A stretch of 64,000 bases of DNA, from contig MU057398.1 of assembly GCA_013265495.1 (NCBI GenBank), positions 434,001-498,000 on the forward strand, given 5' to 3'. The notes under the pieces were generated by a model, which was not told the origin of the DNA, searched no databases, and saw only the letters and a program-made list of their open reading frames with translations. Positions 1 to 64,000 of the stretch are shown here, one piece after another (position 1 is the stretch's first letter; every line of letters begins with the position of its first letter). Source of the stretch: Vicugna vicugna. Its lineage: Eukaryota. The translations under genes were made by a program, and so were the position numbers.

Positions 1-2443
<2,443 letters not shown>

Positions 2444-5800: not shown

Positions 5801-8800
5801 AGAGCAAGTGATGGGCTAAAGCCTGCTGAACGAGTGATGGAAACAGTTTAAGAACTTGGATCAAATCAAGGAAAACCCAGAGAAGGGTAGAATTCCGGTC
5901 TGTAGCATCCACAGCTGTGCCAGCTGGAGCCAAGGCAGCAGGCAGAGGGTGGGAACTGCAACTCTGTGACATTTGTATGTGCAAACTCTGGCAGGTCAAA
6001 CCTGACTTCAGCAAGGGGAGAGAGTATACAGTCAGCGGTAGAGTGCCTGCTTGGATGCACAAGGTCCTGGGTTCAATCCTCAGTACCTCCATTAAAAAAA
6101 AAATACATAAACCTAATTACCTCCCCCCCGCCGAAAAGAAACACAAACATCCACACAGACACAACCTGACTTCAGCAGAGGGGGCTGCCCCAGGAGGGAA
6201 GAAGGGCAGCCCGTCACCGGACCCGCTCCTGCAGAGCCAAGTGCCCCCGAGATCTCAGAATCACAGCACAACAGGGTCCCAGGGACAAGTGTCAGCTCAG
6301 AGGTGAAAGGAATCGCACATGATGCCCCTCCTGGCCCCCGCGCTCACCCTTCAGGGCCACGCGGTTCCGACGGATGGCCATGATAGCGTTACGGATGTCC
6401 TCTTCGTCAGCAGTGGAGCTCACGTGCACCTCTTCAAAGTCCACAGGCACACATGCATGCCTGCGGCAGAGCAGGGTCAGGACGGCGGCCCCAGGCCCCC
6501 TCCAGGAAGCCTGCCTGGACCACTGGGCACAGAGGTCTCTTCCTTGCTGCTGCCCACCTTGACCCGGCTCTGGCTGAGAGGGGACTGCACCCACCTGCAC
6601 CAACTGATGGGGATGCATTTACACCCCTCGACACCGTTAGCAGGCCTGGTTCCACCTTGCCCATGCCCAGGCCAGCCTGGCAGGATCGCAGGCACCAGGA
6701 CGAAAGGCCTGGGCTTGCAGCCCTCCTGCCATTGGCTTACTGCCCATCTTGGCACAAAGTTCTCCAGGCCCCTCCTGGGCCTGGGGCCCCGTACCTGAAC
6801 ACAGATTTGACATGCAGCATGAGCTCCGGCCCGATGCCGTCCCCAGGGATCATGGTCACTGTGTGCCGTCCACCATACTTAGCCGACGGAGGCTAGAGAC
6901 GGGGAGGATAGGCCTTCAGCTCCCTTCCTCCCACCAGCACTGACCCGAGGGGCTGGCCAATCGTGAGGCGCCAGCTAGGGGTCCCTCACCCCTGCGCCCC
7001 ACCCCACCCATCCCAGACAGGGCTGCTCGCAGGGGCTCCTCAGACAGGAGGACAGCAGCAGAAGCAGTCCCCTCCCCCACCTGGACCTGGGTCAACCCCA
7101 AAGCAACTAAAAGCCCCAAACCTAACAGGCAGATGAGAAGAATACTCACAATTGTTTGTTGCTAGAGTGGGGACAGGAAGGAAAAAGACACAGATCAGCC
7201 AAAGTCGGAGGAACAAGGGTGTGCCAGGGGAATGGGGCCTTTCCCCTGGGGACGCTGTCTAGCACAGTTCAGGTAAGGAGGGGTGGGCGAGCTCTGGAGA
7301 CTGCACCTCAAAGGGGAAGACACAGAAGGGCCAGAAGCAGAGAGACATGGCACACACAAGCATGCACACGCACGTATACAACTCTGCACACACACATGCA
7401 CGTAAACACACACACAAGCACCTGTACAGAAACACACAGACAGGCGCAAACGTGCGTAAACAAAAACATCCGTACATGCAAGCACACACACACACACACA
7501 CACATGCACACACACACCCCAGCAAGTACTTACTGAGAAGCTTCTCCCGGGGGCCTCGTGGGCACCTAGAACCTGGCAAAGAGAACCCAGATGCCCAGGG
7601 TTGTCATCCAACCCAGAAACTCAACCTGGCAAGGGCCTGCTGAGCTCTTGGCGGGGCAGAGAAGCACCCTCACCGCGCCCGGACAGGCCCTGCGCACCAC
7701 GCCCTCCACCTCCCCCAGGCACCACTGGCCAGCAAGCCACACCACACAGCAGGTGCCCGGTCGGCTCCAGAGCCGCCACTTCCCAAAGACCACCTGTTGC
7801 AGCGCCACAGAGGGCCGTAACAACCCTTTATGCCTCCTTCAGGTCCGCGCTCAGTTTTTCTTAAAAATGCTTACATCTCCCTTCCCTCCTTTCATTGTTT
7901 CTGGTCTTTTTTAGCCAATTATTCCTGCTCAGTGATGTCTGTGATTTGGAAAAGTTGGCACACTAAACACGGTACAATAGGGAAATCATTATAACCAACC
8001 ACAGGACAACTATGATGGTCATTTAATCATTTTTTTATCACGTGTCCTTATTACAAAAGCACCATATGGTCAAAACATGGAGAAAACCCAGAATGTGGAG
8101 ATCAGAAGGAAGACAGCATCCAGCCCCTGCCCACCCAGAGACGAGCGCCGCTGGGGAACGGCCCTCTAGAGTCCGAAATCGCAAGTCCAACCATTTTTAG
8201 AAGTAGAGCAGACACCATCTTTTGTAAAGCCCTGCAAAACCGCTTCGGGGCCTGTGTGGGTGACAAATGTCCTCAACCCTCTACTCGAAACAGCCACGTT
8301 TGGTCACATTGCTGCTGTGCCTGACTCTAAAGGCAGAGTCACTGTGGCCATTTTCCAAAGAGCTGTGCCTTCCTGCTATAAGTCTAGAAAGCTCAGGCAG
8401 AGGCTGACTACCTCAGCTGGCTCTCCCTGGCTGGTTCACAAGGGACCCGCCTGCACAGAGCTCAGGCAGCACAGGGGCTAGGAAGGGGCTGGTTGACAGG
8501 GCAAGAGGCCCCAGGGGTTTCTGCTGATTCAGGGGGCCCCTGGATCTGCAGCCAGAGGCACACATGGGGCTTTTCTGTTTTCCTTCTAGCAATTCTCAGT
8601 ATCTGGACTCACTTTATTTGTATTGAGAGTAGGCTCTCAAACTTGTGGAAGGTGGCTTAGACTGCCCCTCCTCCAGGAAGTCTTCCCTGATGCCCTAAGG
8701 CTGCCAAGCTATTGGTCCCCTGGACTCCCAAAAGCCTACTCACTCCCTCCCTGCCAACCAGTCTCTCTAGGTTGACACTGCCTTGCTCCCTCTCCAATCC

Positions 8801-10816
8801 CTAAGCCCCCGAGAGTGGATACCATGTTTGTTTGATTCCCTACTGTCATCCCAAGACCCACAGAATGCCTGGCCCAGAGCCAGGACACAAAAATCATTTC
8901 CAGCATGAATGAGCACACTGGAAAACGAAGGAAGATACGGTGTGCTTCAAGGCTAAGGAAACCTAGGTCCAAATCCACCGTTCACTACTCTTGGTGGCAA
9001 ACAGCTTAACCATGCTGAGCTTCCCACCCTGACCTGAAATCCACAGAATAGAGGTGCCTACTTTACCTGACTGCTGGAAAGATTAAGCGAGATGGGGTAT
9101 GTGAGCTGTTCAGTCCCCAACAAGGCACAGGGGCTGTGCGAAACCACACTCACTCCTTGACCCAACCAGCCCCTCAGACCAGTGTTCAAGGCTCATGTCC
9201 AATGAGAGGATGTTGGGCCAACCCCTGTGGCTCCCAGCAGTAATTCCTCCCAGGTTACAGCCCTCTGGAGTCCACCGGCACTAGGCAGGTAACTTGGCCT
9301 TGGTATGAGCCAGCACTAGCACCAGGCCTGGCTCTGCATCTGTACAACTAACCCCAACCAGATCTTGCATCCCATCACTACCACCAGGGCTGAACCTCTC
9401 CCTCAGCTGGTCCCAATGCTAGATGTTCCTTCCAGCTTTGGACCCACAGAGCTCTCAGGATAGCGACTCCCCTGGCCTTGCTATGGACAGATGCAGGCAC
9501 CTTCCATTAGGAGGTTCCAAAGGTTCTGTAAAGCTAACCATTAAGAGCCCAGCATGAGGCAGAAGGGAATATATGCATTGGTCTCCTGCTTGTTCACCTA
9601 GCAGGAGAGTAGACTGTTGGCCCTCATCCTTAGATAGTGTCACGGAAAGAAAGGAGTCCAGCAGGAGGGTATGTGTTCCAGGCAAAGGGCTGCCATACTA
9701 CACGTCTTAGTGAGGCTTCACTCTTCAGCATGTTTCTGTTGGATCAAGTGCTCATGGTGGCTTCCTGTTTCCACACAAGGTCCCAATTAATGGGACCAAA
9801 GATCTGGGCTCTGTCTCTAAAGGTTCCCCTACCCAGGACAACCAGTCTTAGGGCAAGGCACCGACCAGATAGCAACTGCCCACCATCCCCGCCCCAATAT
9901 GGACACAAGTACACACACAGGGAAGGTCAGAGTTGGCTAACTCCTTTGAGACAGAAACTGTAGCCCAAAGAGAAGGAGACTGCCTTAAGGTCACACAGTG
10001 GGTCGGTGGGGGCGCCAGGCCTGGAGGTACCTTTCGTCCCTCAGGGCCAGTCCTGACTTGCTGATGGTTCAGATGGCGTCCAACCCACCCAGGGACTAAA
10101 TTAGCCTCATTTACTGTGTAAAGAGAGAGAAATCAGATCTGAATAACCAAGATCCTAAACGGAGAACGACAGAAGCAAAACCCTCTCGGCCTCCCCAACT
10201 CGCCAGCTTCAGGAACCCTAGCTCCTTCCCATTCCAGGCACCTGCTGGGCGGAGGGGGAGGTAAGCATCTGGGGTACCGGCGAAGTCCGACTCTCCACCT
10301 CCACTGGAATAGGTGGCAAAGTGGTCCACGAAAGGGAAAGCAGAGGTGGAAGGGCGAGGGGGGAACAGATTCCCCAGAGGGCAAGAGCAAGGCGGGCCGG
10401 GACACGTGACAGCCTCGGGAGGGCTCCCACAAGGACACGGAAGGTGAAACTTGGCCCGCTGTGGCCCACTGTCCTCGCTTGTCAGGAGCTCTTCTGCCAC
10501 AAGATGTAGACCCCTGGGAAAGCCGGACCAGAGTCAGCTTTGGCTAACCTCTTCACTGACAGCGCAGGTGGCCAATCAACCCCGGCCGCAGCACTCTCCC
10601 CTCCCCTCTAGGGGCCCGCAACCAATCGGGCCCCAGGACGCTCCGAGAGCGGCGTCCTCCGGCCTGGCCCCGCCGAAATACGAGCACCCGTCGGCGAGCA
10701 CCCCAGCTTCCTCAGGGCCCGTTCCCCTTTCTCACCTCCCAAGGACGGCAGAGGAGGGCTGGCCTGAGCACTGCCTTCGCAGCGCCACCTGCGGCCGTCG
10801 CCACCTTCAGCGCCAT
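2833..10816 (-). CDS. IDH3G: Isocitrate dehydrogenase (NAD+) 3 gamma subunit, mitochondrial, 392 aa
   Basis: 13 coding exons: 10816-10736, 7572-7534, 7161-7150 (12-nt microexon, QQTI), 6892-6795, 6460-6348, 5017-4957, 4866-4734, 4629-4496, 4165-4063, 3970-3824, 3475-3381, 3299-3239 and 2934-2833. They total 1179 nt and all introns are GT-AG. Protein: [11 protein letters not shown]...[13 protein letters not shown]...MPNLYGNIV...[12 protein letters not shown]...GRAVEA*. Confidence 0.97.
3635..3782 (+). mobile_element. Old L1 (L1M-type) 3' end fragment in an IDH3G intron
   Basis: AT-rich island containing 'gatgaaaatgttt...gaattag...gatggctgcacaactctgta...ctaaaaaccact', typical of ancient L1 3' UTRs and similar to 39040-39105 in this window. 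Edges approximate. Confidence 0.6.
6014..6162 (+). mobile_element. tRNA-derived SINE (camelid Vic-1-like)
   Basis: A/B-box-like 'cagcggtagag...ggttcaatcc', an A-rich middle and the tail 'aacctaattacctccccc'. 15-bp TSD aacctgacttcagca at 5999-6013 and 6163-6177. Confidence 0.85.
7347..7517. repeat. Imperfect (CA)n/(TG)n microsatellite in IDH3G intron 2
   Basis: Directly visible CA-rich run between exon 2 and the 12-nt microexon. Confidence 0.9.
8930..9130 (+). mobile_element. MIR-like SINE remnant
   Basis: Degenerate MIR core 'ccaaatcc...cttaacc..ctgagctt...cctactttac...gattaagcgagat'. Edges approximate. Confidence 0.5.
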
Positions 10817-18891: not shown

Positions 18892-21800
18892 TCAGACGGT
18901 GGTGACGGAGAGGAGTGGGTTGTAGACCCGCGTGCCGTCAGCCGAGCGAGTGCCGTGGGCCAGCATCTCCTGGATGGTGATCCAGTTGTCCAGGATCTTC
19001 TTGTTCCGCTTCTTCATGGTTTTGCGGTGGCTCAAGGCAATGATGTTGAGCTCAGCCTTGCTTTCGCCATTCTGCTGCTCCCTCAGGCACTCCAGCCGGC
19101 TCTGCATCATGAACTCGCGCCGCTTCCGCTGCTCCCGGGCCCGGATCAGGTGCTGCTTCCGCTCCTCCTTGCTCCAATAGCGGCCCATCTTCATCTCGCT
19201 CACCGCGTCGTCGTCGGTGGTCATACCGCTGCGCTCCTCCCGGATCTTCAGGGCCCGGGCTTTCAGGAGGCGGTCGCGCACCGGTCGCTTGGCTACGTAG
19301 CGGGTCCCATCGCTGCGCACTTTGACCTTCCACTCCATGCGGGGCGCATCTGGGACTGTGGCCGCCGCCCCGCCCACCCGGGGGCCAGCAGCCAAACTCA
19401 AGGGGCCGTGGCCCAGCTCCTCCAGGCCACGAGGCGGGGCCAGTTGCATGCAGCTGTGGTAGTGCTCACCCTCCTGGCCCTGGGCACGGTGACGCCGAGA
19501 GAGGTAAGGGCTGCCTTCGGGGCCCGCCCGCTCCAGGGGCACCCCAGCCTTGGGGCTGCGACGGACACGCTCTTCTGCATGCTGCCTCCGGCCCACCTCA
19601 GGATCCCGGGAGAGGGAGCGGAACTTGGTGGGACTCCCCTGCGGGGGCGCGGCCTTGGGGTGGGTGGTGATAGGGGGTCCGGAGGGGGTCCGGTTCAAGT
19701 TGGAGTTTCCAGCCGTGGCCCGCCTCAGAGGGCTCTCCAGCAGGGGCTCCGTGAGCAATGGGGTGCTGCGGCAGCTCTCCCCCGTGTTGTAGGCGCTAGT
19801 GCTGTCCTTGTCCGACTTCTCGGGCAGCTCAGAGATGTCAGACAGCTCGTGCTTCTTGGGCTCGCTGGCCCCCAGGTCGTAGAGGCTCTCCTCCTCCAGC
19901 AGCCAGGCCTTCATGCAGCGCTCCCGCAGCTGCTGCATCTTCTGCGCCCGCAGGATGTTGCGGCACTTGAACTCCAGGTGCCGCAGCTCCTCCTCCAGCA
20001 CGGCCATCTCGTGGCCCACGCTCTCGTTGCGGTTGACGTCCAGGGCACCATGGCCGCCCGAGGCCCGAGGGAAGAGGAGGCCCAGCGGGTTGCCGTTCTC
20101 CAGGTGGCACTTGATTTCCAGTAACTCGCGGTAGCGCTCGTACTCTTCATCAGTGAGGCCCGGGACGTCGCCACCGCCGCTCCCCAGCCCTGCCCCATCG
20201 GCCAGCAGGGAGTCCATGCTGAAGTGGAAGTCGCGGCTCTGCAGGGCGTCCCCTTGCAGGCTGAACTTGCGCAGGGGCCCGGGCGTGTTGGTGGTGCTCA
20301 GGGGCTCGTCCCCCAGCAGGTCGTGTTCCGAGCTCTCCTCATTGCGGGTGCTCTCGTCAGTCCGGCCCACCCCGCTGTCCAACTCTTGGCTGTTGCTCAG
20401 GCCTGGTCCCACATCAGGAGCTCCTTTCTCCTCTTCGTTTCCAAGCTGAGGCAGACAGATGAGCCCCTCTTAGTCTGGGCCCCAGGGGTGCAGGCACCAC
20501 AGGAGGATGGTAAGGCTTTCCGGGGGTCCATCTCCCACCCCCCCCCCGCCCCTTCCCTCCTCCTCACCCTCCCCATGACTCACCCGCTCTTCCTCCTTCC
20601 TCACCTGCTGGGCAGGGGGGGACTTCAGCTTCCGCCCACGCAAATCCCCCTCATTCTCAGAGCCAAAGTCATCCAGGAAGTCATCCCGGTCACTGTCCTT
20701 CCACCGCTTGGCCAGCTGCAGAGACAGGTCTGTGCTGTCCCCACTGCCTTAAGAACCTCCCCAGACACCCCTCCAGTTGCCACTAGGTCCCAGCCCACTC
20801 AGCCGTCAGGGGCCAGAAGGGGAAACGGGCCCTGGGACACCGCCCACCCTCCATCAGCACCAGGTTGTTGGCATGTCTGTGCCCTCGTTAGCAGTTTTCA
20901 AGACAGAAAGTCTGATGTCAGGGGACCCAGGACACCCTGTGGACACACACACCTGACTCTCAGGCCGGGCCACCAGCAGGGAGATGTTGGTGTTCTCCTC
21001 CTGGCTCAGGATGGCCACTGCTTCTTCCCGGTTCTGGACGTCCACACCATTTATCTGTGGCAGGCCAAGGGACAATCAACAAGGACCACAAGGCTGGCTG
21101 TGGGGCAGGCCCCCGTTGAGCCACAGGGATCCCCTCGCAGGGCGCTCCTAACCTAACAGGCTCTTGAGTTGTGGTGAGAAGGAAACAAGGAGAAGGTGCC
21201 GGGGAAGAAGACAGCTGGGCCCGTGCAAAGGCACGAGTGCTCAGAGACCAGCTGCAGCAGGAGATGTGCTCACTTCTGGGGGACGGAGGGCAAGGCTGGC
21301 AAGGGGCCAGAGCAGCACAGGCCCTTGAGACCAGCAGATCCCACCAGCACACAGCAGCCACCCACGCAGTTGTGCAGGAGAAAGATGAGACCTAGCCCTG
21401 GATTCAGGCACGGCAGGATGCCTGGCATCCAGCTAGGCTCTCAGCAGGGGAGTGCGGGGATTGGCTAAGGGAGTTGGCGGGGCACTCAGCCTGCCTGCCC
21501 CACTCACCTGGATGATTCGGTCTCCCTCGCGGATCCGGCCATCTTTGGCTGCAATGCTATTGGGATTCACCTGCAAGGCACACGCATCACGGGGACTTGG
21601 CACCTTCCACGAAGGTGCCCTTTCGGTAGGAAGGGGTAGCCCTGCCTTGGGGACCCCAAAGCAAACTGGGGGCTGTTTTTTTAGCATGGGAAAGTATGGG
21701 AAAGTACCCAGACATCTGTCAGACAGGACGGAGAGAATGACCCCTGTGATCACCGAGAGGGCTGGCTGCAGGACGTGGGAGGGAGAACAAAGCCTGACCA

Positions 21801-48434: not shown

Positions 48435-49891
48435 CCTAGAATTGCTAAAGCATTACTGAAGAGAAAGAAAGAGGCTGGAGGAATAACTCTCCCAGACTTC
48501 AGACAATACTATAGAGCTACAGTCATCAAGACAGCATGGTATTGGTACCAAAACAGACATATAGACCAATGGAACAGAATAGAGAGTCCAGAAATGAACC
48601 CACAAACTTTTGGTCAACTCATCTTTGACAAAGGAGGCAAGAATATACAATGGAATAAAGACAGTCTCTTCAGCAAATGGTGTTGGGAAAACTGGACAGC
48701 AGCATGTAAAACAATGAAGCTAGAACACACCCTTACACCATATACAAAAATCAACTCAAAATGGATTAAAGACTTAAACATAAGACAAGATACAACAAAC
48801 CTCCTAGAGGAAAACATAGGCAAAACATTATCTGACATACATTTCAAAAATTTTCTCCTAGAAGAAATAAAAGCAAGAATAAACAAATGGGACCTAATGA
48901 AACTTACAAGCTTCTGCAGAGCAAAGGAAACCAGAAATAAAACAAGAAGAAAACCTACGGAATGGGAAAAAATTTTTGCAAGTGAAACCGACAAAGGCTT
49001 GATCTCCAAAATATATAAGCAGCTCATACGACTCAATAAGAAAAAAATAAACAACCCAATCCAAAAATGGGCAGAAGACCTAAACAAGCAACTCTCCAAG
49101 GAAGACATACAAATGATCAAAAAGCACATGAAAAAATGTTCAATATCACTAATTATCAGAGAAATGCAAATCAAAACTACAATGAGGTATCACCTCACAC
49201 CAGTCAGAATGGCCGTCATTCAAAAATCCAAAAATGACAAATGCTGGAGAGGCTGTGGAGAAAGGGGAACCCTCCTACACTGCTGGTGGGAATGCAGTTT
49301 GGTGCAGCCACTATGGAAAACAGTGTGGAGATTCCTCAAAAGACTAGGAATAGACTTACCATATGACCCAGGAATCCCACTCCTGGGCTTGTACCCAGAA
49401 GGAAATCTACTTCAGGATGACACCTGCACCCCAATGTTCATAGCAGCACTATTTACAATAGCCAAAACATGGAAACAACCTAAATGTCCATCAACAGGTG
49501 ACTGGATAAAGAAGATGTGGTATATTTATACAATGGAATACTACTCAGCCATAAAAACCGACAACATAATGCCATTTGCAGCAACATGGATGCTCCTAGA
49601 GAATGTCATTCTAAGTGAAGTAAGCCAGAAAGAGAAAGAAAAATACCATATGAGATCGCTCATATGTGGAATCTAAAAAACAAAAACAAACAAACAAACA
49701 AAAACAAAGCATAAATACAGGACAGAAATAGACTCATGGACAGAGAATACAGACTTGTGGTTACCGGGGGGGTAGAGGGTGGGAAGGGATAGACTGGGAT
49801 TTCAAAATTGTAGAATAGATAAACAAGATTACACTGTATAGCACAGGGAAATATACACAAAATGTTATGATAAATCACAGAGAAAAAAAAA
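48435..49891 (+). mobile_element. Young 5'-truncated L1 with an uninterrupted ORF2 C-terminal frame
   Basis: The frame is open from 48435 to 49676 ([22 protein letters not shown]...[18 protein letters not shown]...SLICGI*). Perfect 17-bp TSD aagattattttccatga at 48418-48434 and 49892-49908. Confidence 0.95.
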
Positions 49892-50777: not shown

Positions 50778-51244
50778 TGTGAAGGAAAAGCCCAGCTGGG
50801 CTAACAAGCTAAGTCACAAATCTAAGTGCAACAAGTGTCGGATTACTGATCTGAGTTCTGCTGGGCTAACTCATAAATCTGAAGTTTAGTGTCAGTCTAT
50901 TGGGCTAACGAGCTCAGTCACAAATCTAAGTGTGATAAGTGTCGGTTTACTGATATAAGTTCTGCCGGGCTAACTCGTAAATCCAAGCTCAACAAGTGTC
51001 AGTAACGTGATCTGTTCCAAATTGATAAGCTCCAGTGTACTGATTCCTTGCTTTTTGTTGTTTGAACCTTATTGGCTAATAGCCCCATACTTGTAATTAA
51101 CCCTATAAAACCTCATGTGCACGTCTTGGAGGTGCTCAGAGCTTCGGAGCAGAAGCCCCTCTGAGCCCGCCGGCGTAATAAATCTGAGTACTCCAACCCT
51201 CCGAGTGGTGCTTGTTTCTTGGCTGGCCTGTCATTTCCGTAACA
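50778..51244 (+). mobile_element. Isolated 467-bp LTR of the same family as the downstream provirus
   Basis: TGTGAAGGAAA...TTTCCGTAACA termini. By eye it is identical to 55840-56353 except for one 47-bp indel. Confidence 0.95.
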
Positions 51245-51590
51245 TTTCTATTTCTGTTCTCTTCTAGGATTTAACCACTCAAACTCTAGAAAACTCACTT
51301 ACCAGGATTTTGCCACCTACTCTGTTAAGACGGCCGTTCACCTCATTAGAAATGAGAGCAAGTCCTCTGACCACGCATGGTCTTGCTCCTTTTGACCTCC
51401 GGTTTGGGAGGCCTATGAATTTTGGTCTGAGACCAAGTTCTGCGCCTGATTTAACTGAATCCTTTCATGGTCATGCTCAGTACTCAAAAGTACCCTCCCC
51501 TCCCCCTGCCTGTTCTTACAGGCATCCAGGCCATCCTATTCACAGTAGTAGGTATTTAAATTACTTTAAGGATCACATTTATGAGGCAAG

Positions 51591-51695
51591 GAGGGCATAG
51601 CTCAGCGGTGGAGGGCATGCCTAGCATGCACAAGGTTCTGGCTTCAACCCCCAGTACCTCCATCAAAAATAAGCACATAACTTCCCCCAAAAAAA
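51591..51695 (+). mobile_element. Vic-1-like SINE
   Basis: 'gagggcatagctcagcggtggag...cttcaacccccagtacctccatc', with an A-tail. Confidence 0.8.
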
Positions 51696-53919: not shown

Positions 53920-54405
53920 CAAACCAGATTATGTCACCCCCTGCATTTGCTGCTGTGGCATATTGATTATTTTGAATTAAAAGCATTTAAGAACAAGTGC
54001 AAGAAGGATGCTCTGACTCTCCTTTTTCTTCCTGAAAGCAGGAACTAGCCTGCCTCTGTGGAAGTGCCCTCCCTGCACCAGAGACCAGCTTCGAGAGCCT
54101 GGAAATCTGTACCAGCAAATCTTGTTAGTTTCACACTTGTATTTCAAATTATTTTTTCACCACCTACCACCCCTTTTTCTTATCAATTCTTCACCAATTC
54201 AACATTTATTTGTCTAAAGGGTAGAAAAGCTGCCTGCTCTGGTAACTTCTTGGGGGTCTTCATTCTCTTGTGAAGGCATCCAGGCACATGTAAACATTTA
54301 ATAAAATGTGTGTGCTTCTCTCCTGTTCATATGTCTTGTGTCAGTTGAATTCTTAGGCCTGCCAGAGACCCAAAGATGGTAAAGAAGGATTTACCCTCTC
54401 CATCT
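53920..54405 (+). mobile_element. MER34-like LTR
   Basis: 'accagattatgtcacccc...tggcatattgattattttgaa...aataaaatgtgtgtgcttctctcctgtt' resembles MER34. Confidence 0.6.
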
Positions 54406-54605
54406 CTTTGGGTCACCAGCCCTCCCCAAGGATGCAGGTGCACTTGCAAAGCCATCTGCAGTACTGGTAGGAAAGATGGGGGTGGGGGAGCTAAAGACAG
54501 AAAGTTGTCAGGAGGCCAAGACTGAAGTCTGTGCAAGACAAGATGAAACCCCAAGACAGAAAGGAGAAGAGGGGTCAATTCGAAGATTGTCAAAGTTAAA
54601 GACTC

Positions 54606-55020
54606 CACAATATCCCCTCCCCAGGAACTCATAAAGATGCATTTACTCTGGGAAGCAATGGTGATCTGGCCCTTAGAATTTCCAATGGCCCCCTTACAAC
54701 TGAAAAATAACCAAGCCCCTGAAATGGATACGCAAATGCCTCTGCACTCAGAGGGACTTGCATTTCAATGCACTTTAGTTTTTTGAGGAGTGGAAAGTAG
54801 TCAAAGGGAGAGAACCCACAACATCCCCTCCCTGGGAACTCACAAAGATGCATTTACTCCTGCAGGCAATTGTGATCTGACCTGAAGAATTTCGGAGGAC
54901 TTCCCTTAAAACCTAAAAGTACCCAAGAGCCAATATGTAGAAGCAAACGCCCTGCTGCCAAAGGGACTTGCATCTCAATGCTGTGTCCTTTTAAAGGAAG
55001 AGAGTACTTTGGTCAGCTTC
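54606..55020. repeat. Diverged tandem duplication, period about 211 bp
   Basis: 'cacaa.atcccctccc..ggaactca.aaagatgcatttactc...agggacttgcat.tcaatgc' starts at both 54606 and 54817. Confidence 0.8.
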
Positions 55021-55285
55021 CTGGCATTGTTAAAAGCAACAATCAAGAAAATCAACCTGGACCTTGCAATAAGACGCTACTGAGCCTTCCTGATTCCTGA
55101 GCAACTTCAACCTGGAAGTCTTTTTTTTTTTTTTTAAGGAAAAAAATCTTGACCAGTGCTTAACATCATATGCAAACATTAATTCCAGCTGTGTTGTAAA
55201 TCTAAAAGTCAAAGGCAAAACAACCAAGCGTGTAGAAGACAACAGGAGAATGTCTCCATGGTCTCAGAGTTGAGAAAGATTTCTT

Positions 55286-55361
55286 TTTTCTTTAATGGAG
55301 TGACTGAAGATTGAACCCAAGACCTTATGCAGGCTAGGCATGAGCTATATCCACCCCCCAG
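55286..55361 (-). mobile_element. Internally deleted Vic-1-like SINE
   Basis: 'ttgaacccaagacc...tgagctatatccacccc' with TSD gaaagatttctt at 55274-55285 and 55362-55373. Confidence 0.7.
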
Positions 55362-55839
55362 GAAAGATTTCTTAAATAGGACACAAAAGTACTAACCATA
55401 GGAGAATATATTGATAAATTAGTGTTTTCTGAGCTCTGAGGGCACTCAGCCAATTCGTTATTCTTCATGTCTTCAATGCATCTCTCCCCGCCCCCTGCAG
55501 TGTGACTTCTGCTCAGTTCCCATTCTCTTTACCCTCCTCCCCACCTCCCAGCCTGCCGCCCTACATCTCCAAGCTCTTGCTTTGTGCAAGGCATGTAGAA
55601 GAACCACTACTGGATGAGTTCCTCACCTACAGAAGCATACTTTGTTTCTGGTGTTTTCTGAGATTTGCTTCCCCTTGGTTGCTTTGCTGTGCTGTTCACA
55701 TATTAATTGCAGGTATCCCCTACATGGCTTCTGTTCTGTGTCCCTCCGATGTTCCCCAGGTCCTATGGCTCTTGCTGTCTGCAAGGGAGATTGGTTATAC
55801 CACTTTAGAGTGAACTCCGTACTTAGACAAAGTTCATTG

Positions 55840-56353
55840 TGTGAAGGAAAAGCCCAGCTGGGCTAACAAGCTAAGTCACAAATCTAAGTGCAACAAGTGT
55901 CGGATTACTGATCTGAGTTCTGCTGGGCTAACTCATAAATCTGAAGTTTAGTGTCAGTCTATTGGGCTAACGAGCTCAGTCACAAATCTAAGTGTGATAA
56001 GTGTCGGTTTACTGATATAAGTTCTGCCGGGCTAACTTGTAAATCTAAAGTTTAGTGTCAGTTTACTGGGCTAACAAGCTAACTCGTAAATCCAAGCTCA
56101 ACAAGTGTCAGTAACGTGATCTGTTCCAAATTGATAAGCTCCAGTGTACTGATTCCTTGCTTTTTGTTGTTTGAACCTTATTGGCTAATAGCCCCATACT
56201 TGTAATTAACCCTATAAAACCTCATGTGCACGTCTTGGAGGTGCTCAGAGCTTCGGAGCAGAAGCCCCTCTGAGCCCGCCGGCGTAATAAATCTGAGTAC
56301 TCCAACCCTCCGAGTGGTGCTTGTTTCTTGGCTGGCCTGTCATTTCCGTAACA
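55840..56353 (+). promoter_or_regulatory. Proviral 5' LTR (514 bp)
   Basis: Imperfect inverted termini, a 104-bp tandem repeat in U3 (55859-55962 and 55963-56066), ATTGG 56180-56184, TATAAAA 56213-56219 and AATAAA 56286-56291. Confidence 0.93.
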
Positions 56354-56357
56354 TTTC

Positions 56358-56375
56358 TGGAGGCCCCAGCGAGAT
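56358..56375 (+). other. Primer binding site complementary to tRNA-Thr(UGU)
   Basis: TGGAGGCCCCAGCGAGAT, 4 nt after the LTR CA. It is the reverse complement of the mammalian tRNA-Thr(TGT) 3' end as recalled (ATCTCGCTGGGGCCTCCA). Confidence 0.85.
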
Positions 56376-57633
56376 ACAACCACGCCGGCCCCTTGAGCCG
56401 CTGGACTGGTGGCTCCGGCCGACCGGGGGACGGGACTCCGGCAGCGAACGAGGAGGCGCCACCCGACAGTATTCCGGGTTCTCTTTCGTGACGGCAACTC
56501 GGCCCCCCGGGTGGCTGGGCTACAACCAGAGCCAGACTCCGTGGAGGGACGGACAGACTCACCAGGTGGCCGTCCGGACAAGGTAGGATCCCCCGGGAGG
56601 AATCAGGTCCTGTCCCATTGGACAGAAGAGGAGGCTGATCCCCTCCTACAGGCTCTCCGTCTGATGGTAACTCAGACGGGGAAATCAGGAATCAGGTCAG
56701 GAATCAGGTCCTGTCCCAGTGGACAGAAGAGGAGGCTGATCCCCTCCTACAGGAAATAGGATATTGGTATTGGTGGGAGGAATGTTGTTAACCTCTGTGT
56801 GTGTGTGTATGTGTGAGTGAATGAGCGGCCTGTGAAGCATGCGATCAGGCTCGAGTTTGTAGCTCCACGGCATTCTGCTACGGAGTTCGAGTGAGTCCCA
56901 ACCTGCGGTTCCGTGGTGACCTCATACGGCTCAGGGCGGTATCGGTCCCTCAGGGTCCCGATCGGAGTCAGCGGCTTATACTGACCCGCCAAAGCTAAGA
57001 GGCACCTTCGTCCCCGCGAGGGGAGCGGCCAGGCGGACGCAACGAAAACCCTCCCTTGTCTTGTCTGCGACACCGGCACAGGGTGGCTACACTGGGAGGG
57101 AAAAGGACATAGCCAATGAGTCAACGCCCCTGTGCCCTTGGAGGCTAGGATGCTATTTCTTTGAGAAAGTCTCCTACCTGACTCTGTCACAGAACACCCG
57201 AGACTTATTGTTCCCCTACTGAACTGACCCAAGTAGTGCCCCTTTTGCCTAGCCCCAGACACCCAGGACGTAAGTTTAGAAGACGAATTCCTTCAGGACC
57301 GGGCTTGCCCAGCCCTGGAGGTCCCTTTTCTAGTCCATTTGTTTTGCCATCTGCCGTCAGTCCCACGCCCCTGATACGTTAGTTCAGAATATAGAGAGGA
57401 TTTAATGAAGAAAGTCCCTGAAACTGCTTGAGGCCTTGAGATCCAGAGACATCAGCTGAGACTGGAACCCAGAGTCCCTGACCAAGTTAGCCTTAAAACA
57501 ACTCATAGACCCAGCAAGAGAGCAGTCTCTCTGGGAACTCCGGTGTTTTGAAGAGTGAAGAAGAAAAAGATATAAAGGCTACCTTCCCAAACATCTAAAG
57601 CAACAGAACTATTATCCTTAAATATCTAAAAGA

Positions 57634-59220
57634 ATGGGAGGCTCTAAGTCAAAACCCACCACTCTAGACTGCATGATTAAGAATTTCAAAAAGGGGTTCT
57701 CAGGAGACTATGGAATTCGAATGACCCCTGGCAGGCTGCGCACTTTGTGTGAGCTTGAATGGACTGCCTTTGGAGTCGGGTGGCCCTCAGGAGGAACTCT
57801 GGACCTAGCAACAGTGCGAGCAGTCTATCAAATAATCACTGGAACCCCAGGCCACCCAGATCAATTCCCTTACATTGACTCCTGGCTGAATATCGCCCAG
57901 ACTCTACCCCCATGGATTCGGTTTTGCTCAAATGGACCTGGACAATGCAAGATATTAGCAGCTCAGCCAGTCCAGGCCAAAAAGACAGACAGAAAAAAAC
58001 CGATTTTCCAGGGAGACGCAGAAGACGAGATATGCCTGCCCCCTCCATATGCCCCCAAGGCACAAACACCTCCAGTCCCATTGGAGACACCACCACCCTC
58101 TGTGTCACCACCTCCCCAACCTGAGGACCCAGAGGCAGAACTCAGCCCCCAGCCTGAGCCGGTAGGAAGGAGACTCCGCTCAGCACAAGCCGTGAAGCCA
58201 GCACCACCGGCCCTCCAAATGCCGCTGCGGGAGACACAAGGGCCACAGCAAGTTGGGGAAGACGGGACTGTTCAGCCTGGGCACCCCGTACTCTACTACC
58301 AACCCTTTAGCACCACAGACCTTCTCAATTGGCGCCATCACACTCCTTCCTACTCTGAAAAGCCACAGGCTATGATTGACCTCATAGAGTCTATCTTCCA
58401 TTCTCACCGGCCCACCTGGGAAGATGTCCGCCAGCTGCTTCTGACTCTTTTCAATACAGAGGAGAGGAGACGCATTCTCACTGAAGCACGAAAATGGCTG
58501 CAGGGCCGAGCCCCTGGGGACACAATGGATGTTGAGGCGTGGGCCATGACACGTGCCCCTGACACCAGACCAGATTGGGACTTTAACACTCAAGAAGGAA
58601 GAGAAGCACTACGTGAGTACCGGGAGGCCATCCTACAAGGGCTAAAAGCAGGAGCCAAGAAGCCAACTAACATGTCTAAAACGACCACAGTGACCCAGAG
58701 GCCAGACGAAACCCCCACTGACTTCTATGAGAGACTGTGTGAAGCATTCCGAGTCTACACTCCTTTTGATCCTGAGGCCCAAGAAAACCAACGGATGGTC
58801 AACGCTGCCTTCGTAGCCCAATCATACCCAGATATACGCCGGAAACTCCAAAAACTGGATGGATTCGCAGGGATGAACGCTACACAGCTGCTGGAAGTAG
58901 CAAACAAAGTTTTTGTAAACCGAGAACGGGAAGCCCAACGAGAAGCAGACCAGCGAATGAAGCAGAAAGCCGCGCTCCTTGCAGCAGCCCTGGGGAAAAC
59001 AGGCTTCAGCCAGAACCCTGCACCACCCCGGAAGAGGGGACCCCAACCATGGATGCCCCTGGGCCGAGACCAATGTGCATACTGCCGGGAGACTGGGCAC
59101 TGGAAGAACGAGTGCCCAAACAGAAAGGATGGAAAGAGAGCACTCCCTAAAAGGCCTACTTATCAGCTGGAGCCACCAGCCAGTAATCACATCGGACTGG
59201 CTGGGGTTAACTCAGAATAG
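57634..59220 (+). CDS. gag: Retroviral Gag, 528 aa
   Basis: Myristoylation-type start MGGSKSK, PPPY late domain, major homology region (QRPDETPTDFYERL) and one CCHC knuckle CAYCRETGHWKNEC. Ends in TAG. Confidence 0.96.
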   Translation: MGGSKSKPTTLDCMIKNFKKGFSGDYGIRMTPGRLRTLCELEWTAFGVGWPSGGTLDLATVRAVYQIITGTPGHPDQFPYIDSWLNIAQTLPPWIRFCSNGPGQCKILAAQPVQAKKTDRKKPIFQGDAEDEICLPPPYAPKAQTPPVPLETPPPSVSPPPQPEDPEAELSPQPEPVGRRLRSAQAVKPAPPALQMPLRETQGPQQVGEDGTVQPGHPVLYYQPFSTTDLLNWRHHTPSYSEKPQAMIDLIESIFHSHRPTWEDVRQLLLTLFNTEERRRILTEARKWLQGRAPGDTMDVEAWAMTRAPDTRPDWDFNTQEGREALREYREAILQGLKAGAKKPTNMSKTTTVTQRPDETPTDFYERLCEAFRVYTPFDPEAQENQRMVNAAFVAQSYPDIRRKLQKLDGFAGMNATQLLEVANKVFVNREREAQREADQRMKQKAALLAAALGKTGFSQNPAPPRKRGPQPWMPLGRDQCAYCRETGHWKNECPNRKDGKRALPKRPTYQLEPPASNHIGLAGVNSE

Positions 59221-59284
59221 GAGAGACCGGGCTCCCTGCCCCTGGGCCCCCGGGAGCCCAAGGTCAAGATGTTTATAGGGGGCC
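59218..59284 (+). promoter_or_regulatory. gag-pol readthrough signal (UAG, 8-nt spacer, pseudoknot)
   Basis: S1 is GGGCTCCC 59229-59236 with GGGAGCCC 59252-59259. S2 is GGCCCCC 59245-59251 with GGGGGCC 59278-59284. Loop 2 is 18 nt. Confidence 0.88.
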
Positions 59285-62200
59285 AACCAATGACTTTTAT
59301 GGTAGACACAGGAGCAGAGTATTCTGTGGTGACCCAACCTGTAGCCCCCCTGACCAAAAAAAAGGCGACTATTATTGGGGCTACTGGGGACTCAACTGCC
59401 CGCCATTTCTGCCAACCACGATCCTGTCAAGTAGGGGGCCATCTAGTGACACATGAATTTTTATATTTGCCTGAATGCCCAATACCATTGCTTGGAAGAG
59501 ACCTTCTGTCTAAATTGGGGGCACAAATTACCTTTGTCCCCGGGAAACAGGCACATCTGACCCTACAGGGAGAGTCTATGATTCTAGCCATCTCAGTTCC
59601 CCGAGAAGAAGAGTGGCGTCTGTATGAGAGCAGAGAACTCCAGGAAAATCCTTGCAAACTCCTGGAAGAGTTTCCATTAGTCTGGGCTGAAAATGGACCA
59701 CCAGGCTTGGCACATAATCAGGCACCACTGGTGATTGACCTCAAACCTGGAGCCAGCCCAGTCAGACAGAAGCAATATCCCATGCCTCGAGAGGCCCACC
59801 TAGGAATCCAGAAGCATATACAGCGCCTCAGACAAGAGGGAATCCTAACTGAGTGCAGATCTCCCTGGAACACACCGTTGCTCCCAGTGAAGAAAGCAGA
59901 AGGAACAGATTATAGGCCAGTGCAGGACTTACGAAAAGTAAATGAAGTAGTCACTACAATACATTCAGCAGTGCCAAATCCATACACTCTTCTGGGCCTC
60001 ATTCCGGCAGATGCCAAATGGTTTACATGCCTAGACCTTAAAGATGCTTTCTTCTGTCTTCGACTCTCACCTGTGAGCCAGCCCATATTCGCATTTGAAT
60101 GGGAGGATCCCCATACAGGAGGAAAAACTCAACTGACATGGACACGTCTCCCCCAAGGCTTTAAAAACTCGCCCACCTTGTTCGGAGAGGCACTAGCCGC
60201 AGACCTTGTAAAATTCCCTGGGGAAACATTGAACTGTACTCTGCTCCAGTATGTGGATGACTTGCTGTTAGCCAGCCCCAGTGAAGAGGACTGTTGGAAA
60301 GGAACTCGAGCCCTCCTAGGGTTACTCCAAACAACTGGGTACAAGGTCTCATGGAAAAAGGCCCAGATCTGCAAAAAGACAGTCAAATACTTGGGATTTA
60401 TTATCTCAGAGGGACACCGAGCCCTAGGACCAGAACGAAAACAAGTTATTTGTGCCATACCCAGACCGGAAACAAAAAGGAAACTGAGAGAGTTCCTGGG
60501 CGCAGCTGGGTTTTGCCGGATCTGGATCCCCGGATTTTCAAGAATAGCCAAGCCCCTCTACGAAGCAACTGCTGGATCAGGAAAAGAAACCCTCAAATGG
60601 GAAACTAAACAAGAAAATGCCTTTAGGCAATTAAAGGAACTACTAACCCAAGCCCCAGCACTAGGCTTACCAGATGTAACACGAGAGTTTAATCTGTTTG
60701 TACATGAAAGAGACCAAACTGCTCTTGGAGTCCTAACTCAGAATGTGGGGCCATGGCAGCGCCCTGTGGCTTATTTATCTAAAAGACTGGACCCTGTAGC
60801 ATCAGGATGGCCACCCTGTTTACGGGCCCTCGCTGCCACAGCCCTCCTGGTCAATGAGGCAGACAAACTCACACTGGGACAGACTTTAAATGTAAAAGTG
60901 CCCCATTCTGTGGTGGCCCTGATGAATGGCCCAGGTTACAAATGGATAACTAACACAAGGATGACCCACTACCAGGGGCTTCTATGTGAAAATCCAAGAG
61001 TCCGTCTAGAGACTGTGCAAACCTTAAACCCAGCCACATATTTGCCTGAAGGGGAAGGGCAGCCTGACCACAACTGCGAAGAAATCGTTGAAGAGGTGTA
61101 TGCAAGCAGGCCTGATCTAACCGACAAGCCCCTGCAAAACCCAGACCTGGAACTTTTCACAGACGGCAGCAGTTACATGCAAGATGGACAACGGCGAGCA
61201 GGTTACGCTGTAACAACAACCCGAGAGGTAATAAAGGCAGAGTCCCTTCCCCCAGGATGGTCTGCTCAGCGAGCAGAGATCTGGGCACTGGTCCAGGCAC
61301 TAAGGGAAGGGAAAGGAAAACGAGTCAATATATACACTGATTCCAAATATGCATTTGCAACCTTGCATGTACATGGAGCCATCTATAAGGAGAGAGGACT
61401 TTTGACTGCTGGGGGAAAAGAAATCAAAAACAAAGAAGAAATTTTACAGTTACTGGAGGCAGTATGGGATCCAAAGGAAGTGGCCGTTATTCACTGTAAG
61501 GGACATCAAAGAGGAAATGACCCTGTGAGCCAGGGGAACAGGCTAGCTGATCAAAAGGCAAGAGAAGCAGCCGCCTGGGAACACTCAGTAATTAAAGTTA
61601 TGGCAGCGCCAGAGCTACCCACTGCCCCAGAATATAGTCATGATGAAAACAAGTGGGCACAGGCTGAACGAGGAGAGAAAAGAAAGGACGGATGGTGGAT
61701 CATGACGGATGGAAGGGTTTTCATCCCAGAACGACTAGCTTATCGTTTAGTCCAACAACAGCACGAAGCCACACATATGGGAAAAACAGCTTTAGAGGCC
61801 CTCTTAAAGCGATATTTCCTAATTTCTCGTCTCCCTACTCTATGTGCATCAGTTTCCCAACGCTGCTTGCTCTGTGCACAAAACAATCCAAAACAAGGGC
61901 TCACTGGGCCAATGGGAATACAACGATGTGGATTGGCTCCCTTTGAAGATTTAGAAGTGGACTTTACTGAACTTGGGCCCAGTAAGGGATATAAGTACCT
62001 GCTGGTTTTCGTCTGCACCTTCACAGGGTGGGTAGAGGCCTACCCCACCAGGACAGAGAAAGCAAGGGAAGTGACAAAGGCTCTTCTCAGGGATGTTATC
62101 CCTCGATTTGGAATGCCTACCTCCATCGGGTCTGACAATGGACCCGCCTTTGTGTCAGAAATTGTACAGCAAGTGGCAAAGGCACTGAGCATCCGCTGGA

Positions 62201-62856
62201 ACCTACACACAGCATACCGGCCTCAAAGCTCAGGGAAAGTAGAACGAATGAACAGAACTCTAAAACAAATTATAGCTAAAATCAGCCAAGAAACCCAGCT
62301 TCCCTGGGTGGACATTCTACCCCTGGCTCTGTTGCGAATTAGATGCACCCCAAGATTTAATATTGGGTACTCTCCCTTTGAAATCCTCTATGGGCGACCG
62401 CCACCTTTAGTCAGGATGAGAAACCCCACCCCAGAAATAGGAAATCTAGGGCTCCACCAACAACTGTTGGGACTAGGAAAAGTACTACGAGAAGTTTGGG
62501 GTTGGGTGATAGAGAAAACCCCCATTTCATTAGGGGTTCAAGTGCATCCCCATAAACCAGGTGACCAGGTATGGGTGAAGGATTGGAAAAAGGAACCTCT
62601 CAAACCAACATGGAAGGGACCATATTTAGTGGTATTAACTACTCCTACAGCTGTTAAAGTTGCAGGAATCGTCCCTTGGATCCACCACTCCAGAGTCAAG
62701 AGAGCAACTGCACCTCAGACAGAGGGTCCCTGGAAAATTGAGAGTGTCCCGGGAGACCCGCTCAAGATCAAGATCAAGAGGGACCAGAAAAGGATCGACG
62801 AGCCCTGCTCTAGCCACACCCGGAAGCTGGCTAGTCAACGCACGGCCGAAGCTTGA
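59221..62856 (+). CDS. pol: Retroviral Pro-Pol, in frame with gag via UAG readthrough
   Basis: Protease VDTGA, RT LPQG and YVDD, RNase H FTDGS and YTDS, integrase HHCC with D-D-E (VDFT, SDNG, VERMN), and GPY. No interruptions. Confidence 0.97.
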   Translation, partial: ERPGSLPLGPREPKVKMFIGGQPMTFMVDTGAEYSVVTQPVAPLTKKKATIIGATGDSTARHFCQPRSCQVGGHLVTHEFLYLPECPIPLLGRDLLSKLGAQITFVPGKQAHLTLQGESMILAISVPREEEWRLYESRELQENPCKLLEEFPLVWAENGPPGLAHNQAPLVIDLKPGASPVRQKQYPMPREAHLGIQKHIQRLRQEGILTECRSPWNTPLLPVKKAEGTDYRPVQDLRKVNEVVTTIHSAVPNPYTLLGLIPADAKWFTCLDLKDAFFCLRLSPVSQPIFAFEWEDPHTGGKTQLTWTRLPQGFKNSPTLFGEALAADLVKFPGETLNCTLLQYVDDLLLASPSEEDCWKGTRALLGLLQTTGYKVSWKKAQICKKTVKYLGFIISEGHRALGPERKQVICAIPRPETKRKLREFLGAAGFCRIWIPGFSRIAKPLYEATAGSGKETLKWETKQENAFRQLKELLTQAPALGLPDVTREFNLFVHERDQTALGVLTQNVGPWQRPVAYLSKRLDPVASGWPPCLRALAATALLVNEADKLTLGQTLNVKVPHSVVALMNGPGYKWITNTRMTHYQGLLCENPRVRLETVQTLNPATYLPEGEGQPDHNCEEIVEEVYASRPDLTDKPLQNPDLELFTDGSSYMQDGQRRAGYAVTTTREVIKAESLPPGWSAQRAEIWALVQALREGKGKRVNIYTDSKYAFATLHVHGAIYKERGLLTAGGKEIKNKEEILQLLEAVWDPKEVAVIHCKGHQRGNDPVSQGNRLADQKAREAAAWEHSVIKVMAAPELPTAPEYSHDENKWAQAERGEKRKDGWWIMTDGRVFIPERLAYRLVQQQHEATHMGKTALEALLKRYFLISRLPTLCASVSQRCLLCAQNNPKQGLTGPMGIQRCGLAPFEDLEVDFTELGPSKGYKYLLVFVCTFTGWVEAYPTRTEKAREVTKALLRDVIPRFGMPTSIGSDNGPAFVSEIVQQVAKALSIRWNLHTAYRPQSSGKVERMNRTLKQIIAKISQETQLPWVDILPLALLRIRCTPRFNIGYSPFEILYGRPPPLVRMRNPTPEIGNLGLHQQLLGLGKVLREVWGWVIEKTPISLGVQVHPHKPGDQVWVKDWKKEPLKPTWKGPYLVVLTTPTAVKVAGIVPWIHHSRVKRATAPQTEGPWKIESVPGDPLKIKIKRDQKRIDEPCSSHTRKLASQRTAEA

Positions 62857-63043
62857 GGAAAGCCCAACGCAGCTGTTAAATATATTTCTTTTGTGCTCCC
62901 TTGCCTCTTTCCTTGTTTTCTATACCAGTCTGCGTACTAGCAGTGGGGCTAGCTAGCGCCACCCCACCTGACTGGAACATAGGCCATAAAATCCTGATAG
63001 CTATTTTATATCTTCTTATAATTAGTGCCATCACCGCAGCATC

Positions 63044-64000
63044 ATGTCTAAGATAATCATAAGGCTGATGTTACTAATGCTAATGTCCTCACTCTCCTTG
63101 GCTGTACAGTGCACCTGCATGGAACCGGGTGACAGGTGGTCCATATACCGGCCTGTATTTTCAGCTTATACTTATCAGCCGAGTCAATGCTATGACTCCG
63201 CTTCAGAGTGCACATATCAGGGAAAATCCTACTGGATTGGCACAATTAAGGCTTATTATGTATCTAGCATCAAATGCTATGGCACACCCGGCAAGCTGGT
63301 GTGCTGGACCAAGCAAACACATTATGGGATGAGTGATGGAGGGGGCGTACAGGACCAGGCACGCCGGCAAGCAGTCCAACAAGCAGTCCAGAGGCAACAC
63401 CGGAAGTTATTACCTACCCGGAAGCCAATAAAACTTCCATCTTTAGCCGAGCCTCGGGATCTGGATCCACAAATAAATGGGCTGTTAGCCGCAGTCCATG
63501 GGATTCTCAATCATTCCAATCCAGACCTGGCTAAAGATTGCTGGCTATGCTTGCGTCCTGGCCCCATCCAGCACCTGGCTTTACCTCTGACAAACCTCAC
63601 TAAGACTTTCACCACAACTCATAGCGATGCCGTTTCTACCACTAGGAGTTCCAGGCTGAACTGGGTACAGCTCGCCTACAAGGCACCAGAATGTTATTTC
63701 AACAATGGAACTAATCCTTTAGAGGGCAATCTAACTATAAATCAATGTATTAAAACCTCTCACTGTATGGGTCTAGGGTGCCAACCCACACAAAGATGGT
63801 GTTCTAATAACGGGACTTATTTTGTATGTGGTGAATTTGCCTACCGGTGCCTCCCTGCCAGATGGGCAGGGTTATGTGCTTTGGCTTATCTCACTCCCCG
63901 AATGGACATTATGCCTAATAATCAAAGTCTGCCCATCCCTGTCATAACTCACCAGCATCCACGGAGAATAAAACGAGCTATACAATTGATCCCCTTGCTA
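63044..64000 (+). CDS. env: Retroviral Env: signal peptide, complete SU and start of TM, open to the window end
   Basis: Hand translation gives 319 codons with no stop: MSKIIIRLMLLMLMSSLSLAVQCTC...CWTKQTHYGMSDGGGVQDQAR (motif 63332-63364)...DCWLCL (CWLC 63539-63550)...RRIKR|AIQLIPLL (furin site 63965-63976). It is missing from the ORF track because no stop falls inside the window. Confidence 0.93.
   Translation, partial: MSKIIIRLMLLMLMSSLSLAVQCTCMEPGDRWSIYRPVFSAYTYQPSQCYDSASECTYQGKSYWIGTIKAYYVSSIKCYGTPGKLVCWTKQTHYGMSDGGGVQDQARRQAVQQAVQRQHRKLLPTRKPIKLPSLAEPRDLDPQINGLLAAVHGILNHSNPDLAKDCWLCLRPGPIQHLALPLTNLTKTFTTTHSDAVSTTRSSRLNWVQLAYKAPECYFNNGTNPLEGNLTINQCIKTSHCMGLGCQPTQRWCSNNGTYFVCGEFAYRCLPARWAGLCALAYLTPRMDIMPNNQSLPIPVITHQHPRRIKRAIQLIPLL

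Follow-up and report, generated by a model that had tools for sequence, protein, structure and literature searches.

An intact-looking gammaretrovirus-like provirus of a probably recently active family, lacking a target-site duplication, upstream of PDZD4 in Vicugna vicugna

Few mammals are known to carry several near-identical, fully open copies of an endogenous retrovirus (ERV), among them the pig, koala, mule deer, mouse, cat and sheep. In porcine endogenous retrovirus (PERV), the mule deer element CrERV, koala retrovirus (KoRV) and the sheep element enJSRV, near-identical open copies occur together with identical or near-identical long terminal repeats (LTRs) and many solo LTRs, and insertional polymorphism, expression and particles have been documented. 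Here we describe, from its sequence, a camelid family that shares the open copies, the LTR similarity and the many solo LTRs of these elements, through a provirus found in a 64,000-nucleotide stretch of the Vicugna vicugna genome (assembly GCA_013265495.1, contig MU057398.1, positions 434,001 to 498,000; hereafter the window). The provirus lies on the plus strand, starts at position 55840 and is 9,245 bp long; window positions 55840-64000 hold its first 8.2 kb, and the remaining 1,084 bases lie past the window end. Coordinates are window positions, and “window-equivalent” marks the same numbering continued past 64000 in the contig. The contig is 820 kb long, and the genome searched comprises 2.03 Gb in 12,405 pieces. 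We conclude, at a probability of about 0.72, that the locus as assembled holds a provirus in the camelid germ line, and that the class I (gammaretrovirus-like) ERV family to which it belongs was active recently. There is good support for calling this member of the family young and intact-looking.

In its accessible part, a survey of camelid transposons records that LTR elements of Vicugna pacos went through a recent burst, dated to 1.5-4 million years ago by its own rate, and ERV1 clusters in the same species, for which that part of the survey gives no virological detail (PMC8605555). Full-text searches on camel, alpaca, llama and Vicugna endogenous retroviruses returned no description of the present family.

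The sequence can be read in the order LTR, primer-binding site (PBS) for tRNA-Thr, long leader, gag, UAG readthrough pseudoknot, pro-pol, env, polypurine tract and LTR (Table 1). The original prediction, made from the letters of the window, had described uninterrupted gag, pro-pol and visible env with intact catalytic motifs in a recent and perhaps polymorphic insertion of an active family. All three frames are indeed open, each contains the expected Pfam domains, and downstream of 64000, where inactivating lesions would have spoken against the prediction, none was found: env is complete and ends inside U3 of the 3′ LTR, with the polypurine tract and the LTR in place. The boundaries of the 5′ LTR were set by 11 solo LTRs with perfect 4-bp duplications. 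Its U3 region holds a 104-bp tandem repeat at 55858-56109 (2.4 copies, Tandem Repeats Finder), and TATAAAA (56213-56219) and AATAAA (56286-56291) signals can be read from the sequence. The PBS predicted earlier is real, and its reverse complement equals the 3′ end of three host tRNA-Thr(TGT) genes, which were found with a T-loop-extended pattern. A 15-mer of the PBS occurs 53 times in the genome, three of these occurrences being in the tRNA-Thr(TGT) genes; no tRNA gene was found at the five of the other 50 sites that were scanned. A possible splice donor, AAG/GTAGGA, was recognised by eye in the leader near 56582/56583.

Recent insertion is suggested by the LTRs, by the retained CpG dinucleotides and by the family. 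Substantial divergence between the 5′ and 3′ LTRs had been named beforehand as grounds for rejecting a recent origin, and 0 of 514 positions differ. For zero differences in 2 × 514 bp, the 95% upper bound on age is 3/(2 × 514 × rate). At 2.2e-9, a commonly used mammalian rate, the provirus would be younger than ~1.3 million years. With the rate of 5e-9 per site per year that follows from the camelid survey (PMC8605555), it would be younger than ~0.6 million years. Observed/expected CpG ratios of 0.52 for the LTR, 0.60 for the leader and 0.34-0.42 for the genes stand against 0.19 for the host flank, in keeping with the unmutated CpGs noted earlier in R/U5 and the leader.

The family is large and contains near-identical copies, as the prediction of an active family implied. 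The LTR search gave 1,535 first-look candidates, and the 40 that were scored were all at least 99% identical. The exact 17-nt LTR end occurs 302 times in the genome, with ~50 of these occurrences belonging to 5′ LTRs. Among the best 30 LTR loci, 26 were parsed, yielding eight 5′ LTRs, seven 3′ LTRs, 11 solo LTRs with a perfect 4-bp duplication and one solo LTR without. The genome thus holds hundreds of LTRs and at least nine full-length copies, of which nine, including the provirus at 55840, were fetched. Over 514 bp, the LTR pairs of these nine differ at 0 (the provirus at 55840), 1, 1, 1, 1, 2, 3, 4 and 5 positions; the six gap-free copies other than this one have 11 LTR-pair differences between them, 4 of which are in CpG context. 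All three frames are open in 6 of the 7 gap-free full-length copies, and the interior of the provirus differs from those of other copies by 3-7 substitutions. Among 46 listed pol matches, 7 are 100% identical and free of stops, 6 of them over all 1,211 residues; the other 39 have 66-98% identity and all contain stops. The family therefore consists of an old, decayed layer and a small, young one.

The encoded proteins are gammaretrovirus-like. Gag contains Gag_MA, Gag_p30 and one zf-CCHC domain (Pfam), and an N-terminal MG and a PPPY late motif can be read from its translation. Pol follows in the gag frame with RVP, RVT_1, RNase_H, rve and MLVIN_C, the last being the integrase C-terminal domain of the murine leukaemia virus (MLV) type; the catalytic motifs in the translation are DTGA in protease, YVDD in reverse transcriptase, and HHCC together with D,D,E in integrase. 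A gap of 187 nt separates env from pol, with no overlap. Env matches TLV_coat (Pfam) and is gamma-type, with CWLC in the surface subunit (SU), RRIKR, an immunosuppressive domain, and CX6CC in the transmembrane subunit (TM). The pseudoknot previously called intact lies behind the gag stop codon. Stem 1 (59229-59236 with 59252-59259), stem 2 (59245-59251 with 59278-59284) and loop 3 are readable by eye, and Rfam RF01073 (GP_knot1) matches in place at 59218-59285, though its 25.8 bits (E 0.059) fall short of the gathering score, 67.7.

Judged by homology, the provirus would replicate in the manner of a simple gammaretrovirus, and it may be competent to do so. Readthrough of the UAG that ends gag would yield Gag-Pro-Pol, and Env would be translated from a spliced mRNA, cleaved at RRIKR and held together through CWLC and CX6CC. 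The arrangement of gag, UAG, pseudoknot and pro-pol in one frame and the Gag with MA, p30 and a single CCHC box are shared with MLV, PERV, KoRV and gibbon ape leukaemia virus (GALV), and reticuloendotheliosis virus (REV). The MLV-type integrase C-terminal domain and the gamma-type Env are likewise those of classical gammaretroviruses, and so is the 4-bp target duplication of the family, although the provirus at 55840 itself lacks one. Other features set the provirus apart. Its PBS is for tRNA-Thr, whereas the primer is tRNA Pro or Gln in MLV and Pro or Gly in PERV, and the gap between pol and env is also unlike the classical gammaretroviruses. Four bases lie between the CA of U5 and the PBS, in contrast to two in MLV.

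Pol was compared through protein matches, of which 120 were listed. Among these, Pol is ~50% identical to MLV, REV and PERV and 54-56% identical to lizard ERVs; the best full-length match has 58% identity, partial bat proteins have 62-63%, and one protein of 768 aa has 89%. For the tree, 30 rows were hand-picked from the 120 matches and a quick search was run, with support from the Shimodaira-Hasegawa-like approximate likelihood ratio test (SH-aLRT), a midpoint root only and no non-gamma outgroup. Two bat proteins and the 89% protein form a group with Pol (SH-aLRT 100), and in this midpoint-rooted tree the group nests among reptile, amphibian and bird ERVs in a clade of 14 rows. MLV, PERV and REV fall into a separate 16-row clade, so that, among the 30 chosen rows, the provirus differs from these viruses in main clade as well as in identity. 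Gag has one relative among IMG/VR viral contigs, at 47% identity, and nothing close there.

The relatives of Env are different. Two proteins come nearest, both at 71% identity, one of them a “syncytin-1 [Camelus ferus]” whose match spans 55% of the query; simian retrovirus (SRV), REV and many syncytin-1-like proteins follow at 35-42%. SRV and REV, at 35-40%, are the nearest named viral Envs. SRV is a betaretrovirus, and the gag-pol backbone of the provirus is unrelated to that of SRV. The defining work gives the SU motifs of the ASCT2-using RD114-and-D-type (RDR) interference group as PCXC, CYX5C, CX8-9CW and SDGGGX2DX2R (PMC1524976). Measured against that list, the SU of the provirus has three of the four motifs exactly, as CYDSASEC, CYGTPGKLVCW and SDGGGVQDQAR, and QCTC in place of the first, PCXC. 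These motifs align with those of SRV-1, SRV-5, REV and syncytin-Ory1. The provirus thus resembles the RDR envelopes (SRV and Mason-Pfizer monkey virus (MPMV), REV, RD114, baboon endogenous virus (BaEV) and syncytin-1) in CYX5C, CX8CW and SDGGGX2DX2R, and departs from them in QCTC and in an N-terminal part of SU that is ~20 residues shorter than in SRV and REV. By analogy with the RDR envelopes, the predicted receptor would be ASCT2 (SLC1A5). On these comparisons, Env is apparently from a different stock than Pol.

The original prediction pointed to a target-site duplication as a check on the insertion, and here the locus departs from its family. The left flank ends in ...gttcattg, the right flank begins with tttcgtct..., and the adjoining 4-mers (attg and tttc) do not match. 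Perfect 4-bp duplications were found in 8 of 8 other full-length copies and in 11 of 12 solo LTRs. The four bases beyond the 3′ LTR, TTTC, are precisely those that separate U5 from the PBS. This TTTC is part of the end of the linear viral DNA that integrase should remove. Genome-wide, TTTC plus a following non-T base adjoins the LTR end at 18 places, against ~1 expected from base composition by our own estimate. Thirteen of the 18 junctions were inspected, and in 10 the LTR start could be located by its exact motif. None of these 10 has a duplication, either direct or after TTTC; an ordinary duplication that happens to be TTTC, and one that starts after TTTC, each fit none of the 10 cases and were discarded. 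Immediately upstream of U3, four of the 10 read ...CATTT and the provirus at 55840 reads ...CATTG, which resembles the viral end ...CATTTC. The solo LTR 5 kb upstream is followed by TTTCT.

We propose, tentatively and at somewhat less than even odds, that the provirus at 55840 arose by one-ended integration. The U3 end would have been trimmed normally and joined by integrase, and the unprocessed U5 end would have kept its TTTC and been joined by host end-joining, possibly helped by microhomology between the left flank ...CATTG and the viral end ...CATTTC. An artefact of polishing or error correction is another possible source of the TTTC junctions, but it fits poorly with the clean junctions elsewhere in the assembly.

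The locus was also compared with sequencing runs, one DNA run for each of three organism labels and one RNA-library run. Across 14 DNA runs under the three labels, 0.86-0.89 of the sampled words from window positions 54000-58000 were present. Contigs with 0 differences to internal pieces covered 8, 7 and 7 of the 8 pieces listed for the respective DNA runs. Summed depth on the LTR bins was ~20-50 times that of the interior, and several internal-deletion variants were visible as joints in the runs. Both unique flanks (bins 1-334 and 9687-10000) had zero depth in all 4 runs; a filter removes records, and this result is uninformative on presence, absence or empty alleles at the site. In the RNA-library run, which stems from reproductive-tract libraries, contigs lay on 26 of the 30 bins of the locus.

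Several observations weigh against the locus being what the assembly presents. The provirus has no target-site duplication, its GP_knot1 match stays under the Rfam gathering score, and zero LTR differences would still allow an age of up to ~0.6-1.3 million years. Most of the RNA contigs are 2-5% divergent from the provirus, none lies over env bins 7683-8350, and the spliced env joint was not seen in the RNA-library run; the run therefore does not demonstrate expression of this subfamily. Other copies contain assembly gaps of 384, 1,314 and 4,412 N. At four loci on four contigs the 8,214-bp interiors are byte-identical, while the LTR pairs of these loci differ at 1-5 sites, and the differences among interiors form few shared patterns, with three interior “haplotypes” distributed as a mosaic across the copies. 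At window position 57459 and window-equivalent 64225, the assembly base occurs in 0 of 4 runs and all contigs carry another base. Finally, all four LTR-bearing elements in a 16-kb stretch around the provirus have mismatched flanks, which could be misassembly. The identical interiors may reflect either an extremely recent burst, with the LTR differences as errors, or filling from pooled reads. If they were filled from pooled reads, the open frames would describe the family rather than the locus at 55840, and both the frames and even the structure there may not be the locus's own. Each of the points on gaps, interiors, unsupported bases and flanks would be expected if the locus held a family member, perhaps just a solo LTR or a defective copy, and the assembled 8.2-kb interior was filled with reads from several near-identical copies, in which case the assembly, not the locus, would account for the intact frames, the LTR identity and perhaps the TTTC junction. 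We consider this unlikely. The perfect duplications at the other proviruses and solo LTRs indicate that assembly junctions are generally right; the window is free of N, and both provirus flanks are unique, the genome search having returned no second copy or alternative haplotype of either. Interior lengths vary (8,214, 8,217 and 8,218 bp), and the copies are therefore not all one consensus. Moreover, internal pieces with 0 differences occur under three other organism labels, which shows that the sequence itself exists in nature.

The unmatched flanks could also have arisen if two proviruses in the same orientation, one with the duplication ATTG and the other with another 4-mer, had recombined with loss of the host DNA between them, and a later small deletion or conversion had placed TTTC beside the 3′ LTR. 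The neighbourhood lends itself to such an event: at least three separate family insertions lie within 16 kb, and downstream the two halves of a short interspersed element (SINE) in inverted order show a nearby LTR-LTR rearrangement or misorientation. Recombination leaves unexplained, however, why the 3′ flank starts with exactly TTTC, why 18 such LTR ends exist genome-wide, and why left flanks read CATT(T/G); we judge it quite improbable, the identical LTRs and the 3-7 substitutions that separate the interior from other copies neither helping nor hurting it. Very remote, in our view, is an old, fixed, host-maintained locus in which gene conversion, or selection on an env or gag co-opted in the manner of syncytin or restriction genes, had preserved the frames and the LTR identity. 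The Env relatives annotated as syncytin-1 in Camelus ferus and many other mammals and the reproductive-tract origin of the RNA contigs would suit it, but what is intact here is not a single gene but the full set of three genes, two LTRs, PBS and polypurine tract, several near-identical copies exist, CpG is not depleted, and the protein of Camelus ferus, which is truncated, reaches just 71% identity. We therefore retain the germ-line provirus of a recently active family as the best explanation of the locus as assembled.

Five family LTRs, with three U3 length variants, make up the cluster within 16 kb, and there are none elsewhere on the contig. All five have unmatched flanks. Such a cluster marks either a hotspot of integration upstream of PDZD4 or a fault of the assembly. 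Two of its LTRs stand head to head downstream of the provirus with 351 bp between them. The flank to the right of the first reads gtat tggagattgaacc..., and the reverse complement of the flank to the right of the second reads ...aatgttggtac. The outer flanks of the pair thus represent, in inverted order, both halves of a single tRNA-type SINE, and the stretch must contain an LTR-LTR inversion or a misoriented piece. These features point to one insertion, with the duplication GTAC, that was later inverted or misoriented. The solo LTR upstream of the provirus is the one that the original prediction had taken for a sister LTR with no visible substitutions. It is a near-identical family LTR, as proposed, but it is a separate solo element and differs by one substitution and a 47-bp gap. 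In a 218-base query taken from its flank, the first ~150 bases, ending ~50-70 bp short of the LTR, proved to be an old repeat with 1,187 candidates. As a separate observation, the left flank of this solo LTR (ttat) and the ataa end of an inverted 604-bp piece downstream of the provirus have matching ends that suggest continuity.

Table 1. Features of the provirus and its surroundings, in window positions (w.-e., window-equivalent).
Feature	Position	Strand	Remarks
PDZD4 last coding exon	18895-20469	-	protein 100% identical to Vicugna pacos PDZD4, 99% to Camelus dromedarius
Solo LTR	50778-51244	+	5 kb upstream of the provirus; 1 substitution, U3 repeat 47 bp shorter; flanks ttat / tttct, no clean duplication
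5′ LTR	55840-56353	+	514 bp, TGTGAAGG...CCGTAACA
Spacer TTTC	56354-56357	+	4 nt between U5 and PBS
PBS TGGAGGCCCCAGCGAGAT	56358-56375	+	18 nt, for tRNA-Thr(UGU)
Leader	56376-57633	+	1.26 kb, CpG-rich; 55-nt repeat at 56598-56652 and 56699-56753
gag	57634-59220	+	528 aa, stop TAG
Readthrough signal	59218-59284	+	UAG, 8-nt spacer, 8-bp stem 1, 7-bp stem 2, 18-nt loop 3 (by eye)
pro-pol	59221-62856	+	1,211 codons, gag frame, directly behind gag TAG
env	63044 to w.-e. 64597	+	517 aa, complete; first 319 of 517 codons inside the window
Polypurine tract (AAGAGGGGGG + AA)	w.-e. 64559-64568	+	precedes the 3′ LTR
3′ LTR	w.-e. 64571-65084	+	514/514 positions identical to the 5′ LTR
LTR with U3 deletion	w.-e. 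65689-66137	-	head to head with w.-e. 66489-66937
LTR with U3 deletion	w.-e. 66489-66937		same U3 deletion as w.-e. 65689-66137; 351 bp between the pair

The host gene PDZD4 was confirmed; by the protein identity of its last exon, the host is a camelid nearest to alpaca. A G+C-rich 5′ region lies near 41.7-42.5 kb. Together with the exon on the minus strand, this places the provirus ~13-14 kb upstream of PDZD4 and divergent from it, in line with the ~14 kb proposed earlier. L1CAM, which the original prediction placed further along from human synteny, was not confirmed: four short peptide motifs, used as a weak test, gave 0 matches in the next 20 kb. Exons at window positions 1-2300 resemble a serine/arginine protein kinase, which we take to be SRPK3 from the gene order of Xq28. 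Repeats of other kinds are also present. An open stretch of 413 codons of LINE-1 ORF2 type occupies 48435-49676, with similar L1 pieces at 31.2-31.7 kb and 38.5-38.8 kb; a decayed fragment at 51268-51600, to the right of the upstream solo LTR, resembles the integrase region of an unrelated and much older ERV (...LAPFDLRFGRPMN...); and at window-equivalent ~67215-67320 a sequence like U6 small nuclear RNA with an A-rich tail was recognised by eye and is probably a retropseudogene.

For the biology of the family, a more far-reaching and rather doubtful proposal is that the family continues to move in South American camelids or has a counterpart circulating as an exogenous virus, that it combines a deep-branching gamma-like backbone with an acquired RDR (ASCT2-type) envelope, and that, because its U5 CA lies four bases from the terminus, integration is often one-ended, with TTTC retained and no duplication made. 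If this were true, the family would provide a natural record of aberrant retroviral integration in the germ line. The camelid example would extend the mammals listed above to a domesticated host, kept on farms around the world and in wide use for raising antibodies. The pairing of a pol like those of bat and reptile ERVs with an env of RDR type would be a further case of envelope swapping. The recurrent junctions of LTR and TTTC, if they are real, would be natural integration failures, comparable with those of integrase-defective viruses in culture.

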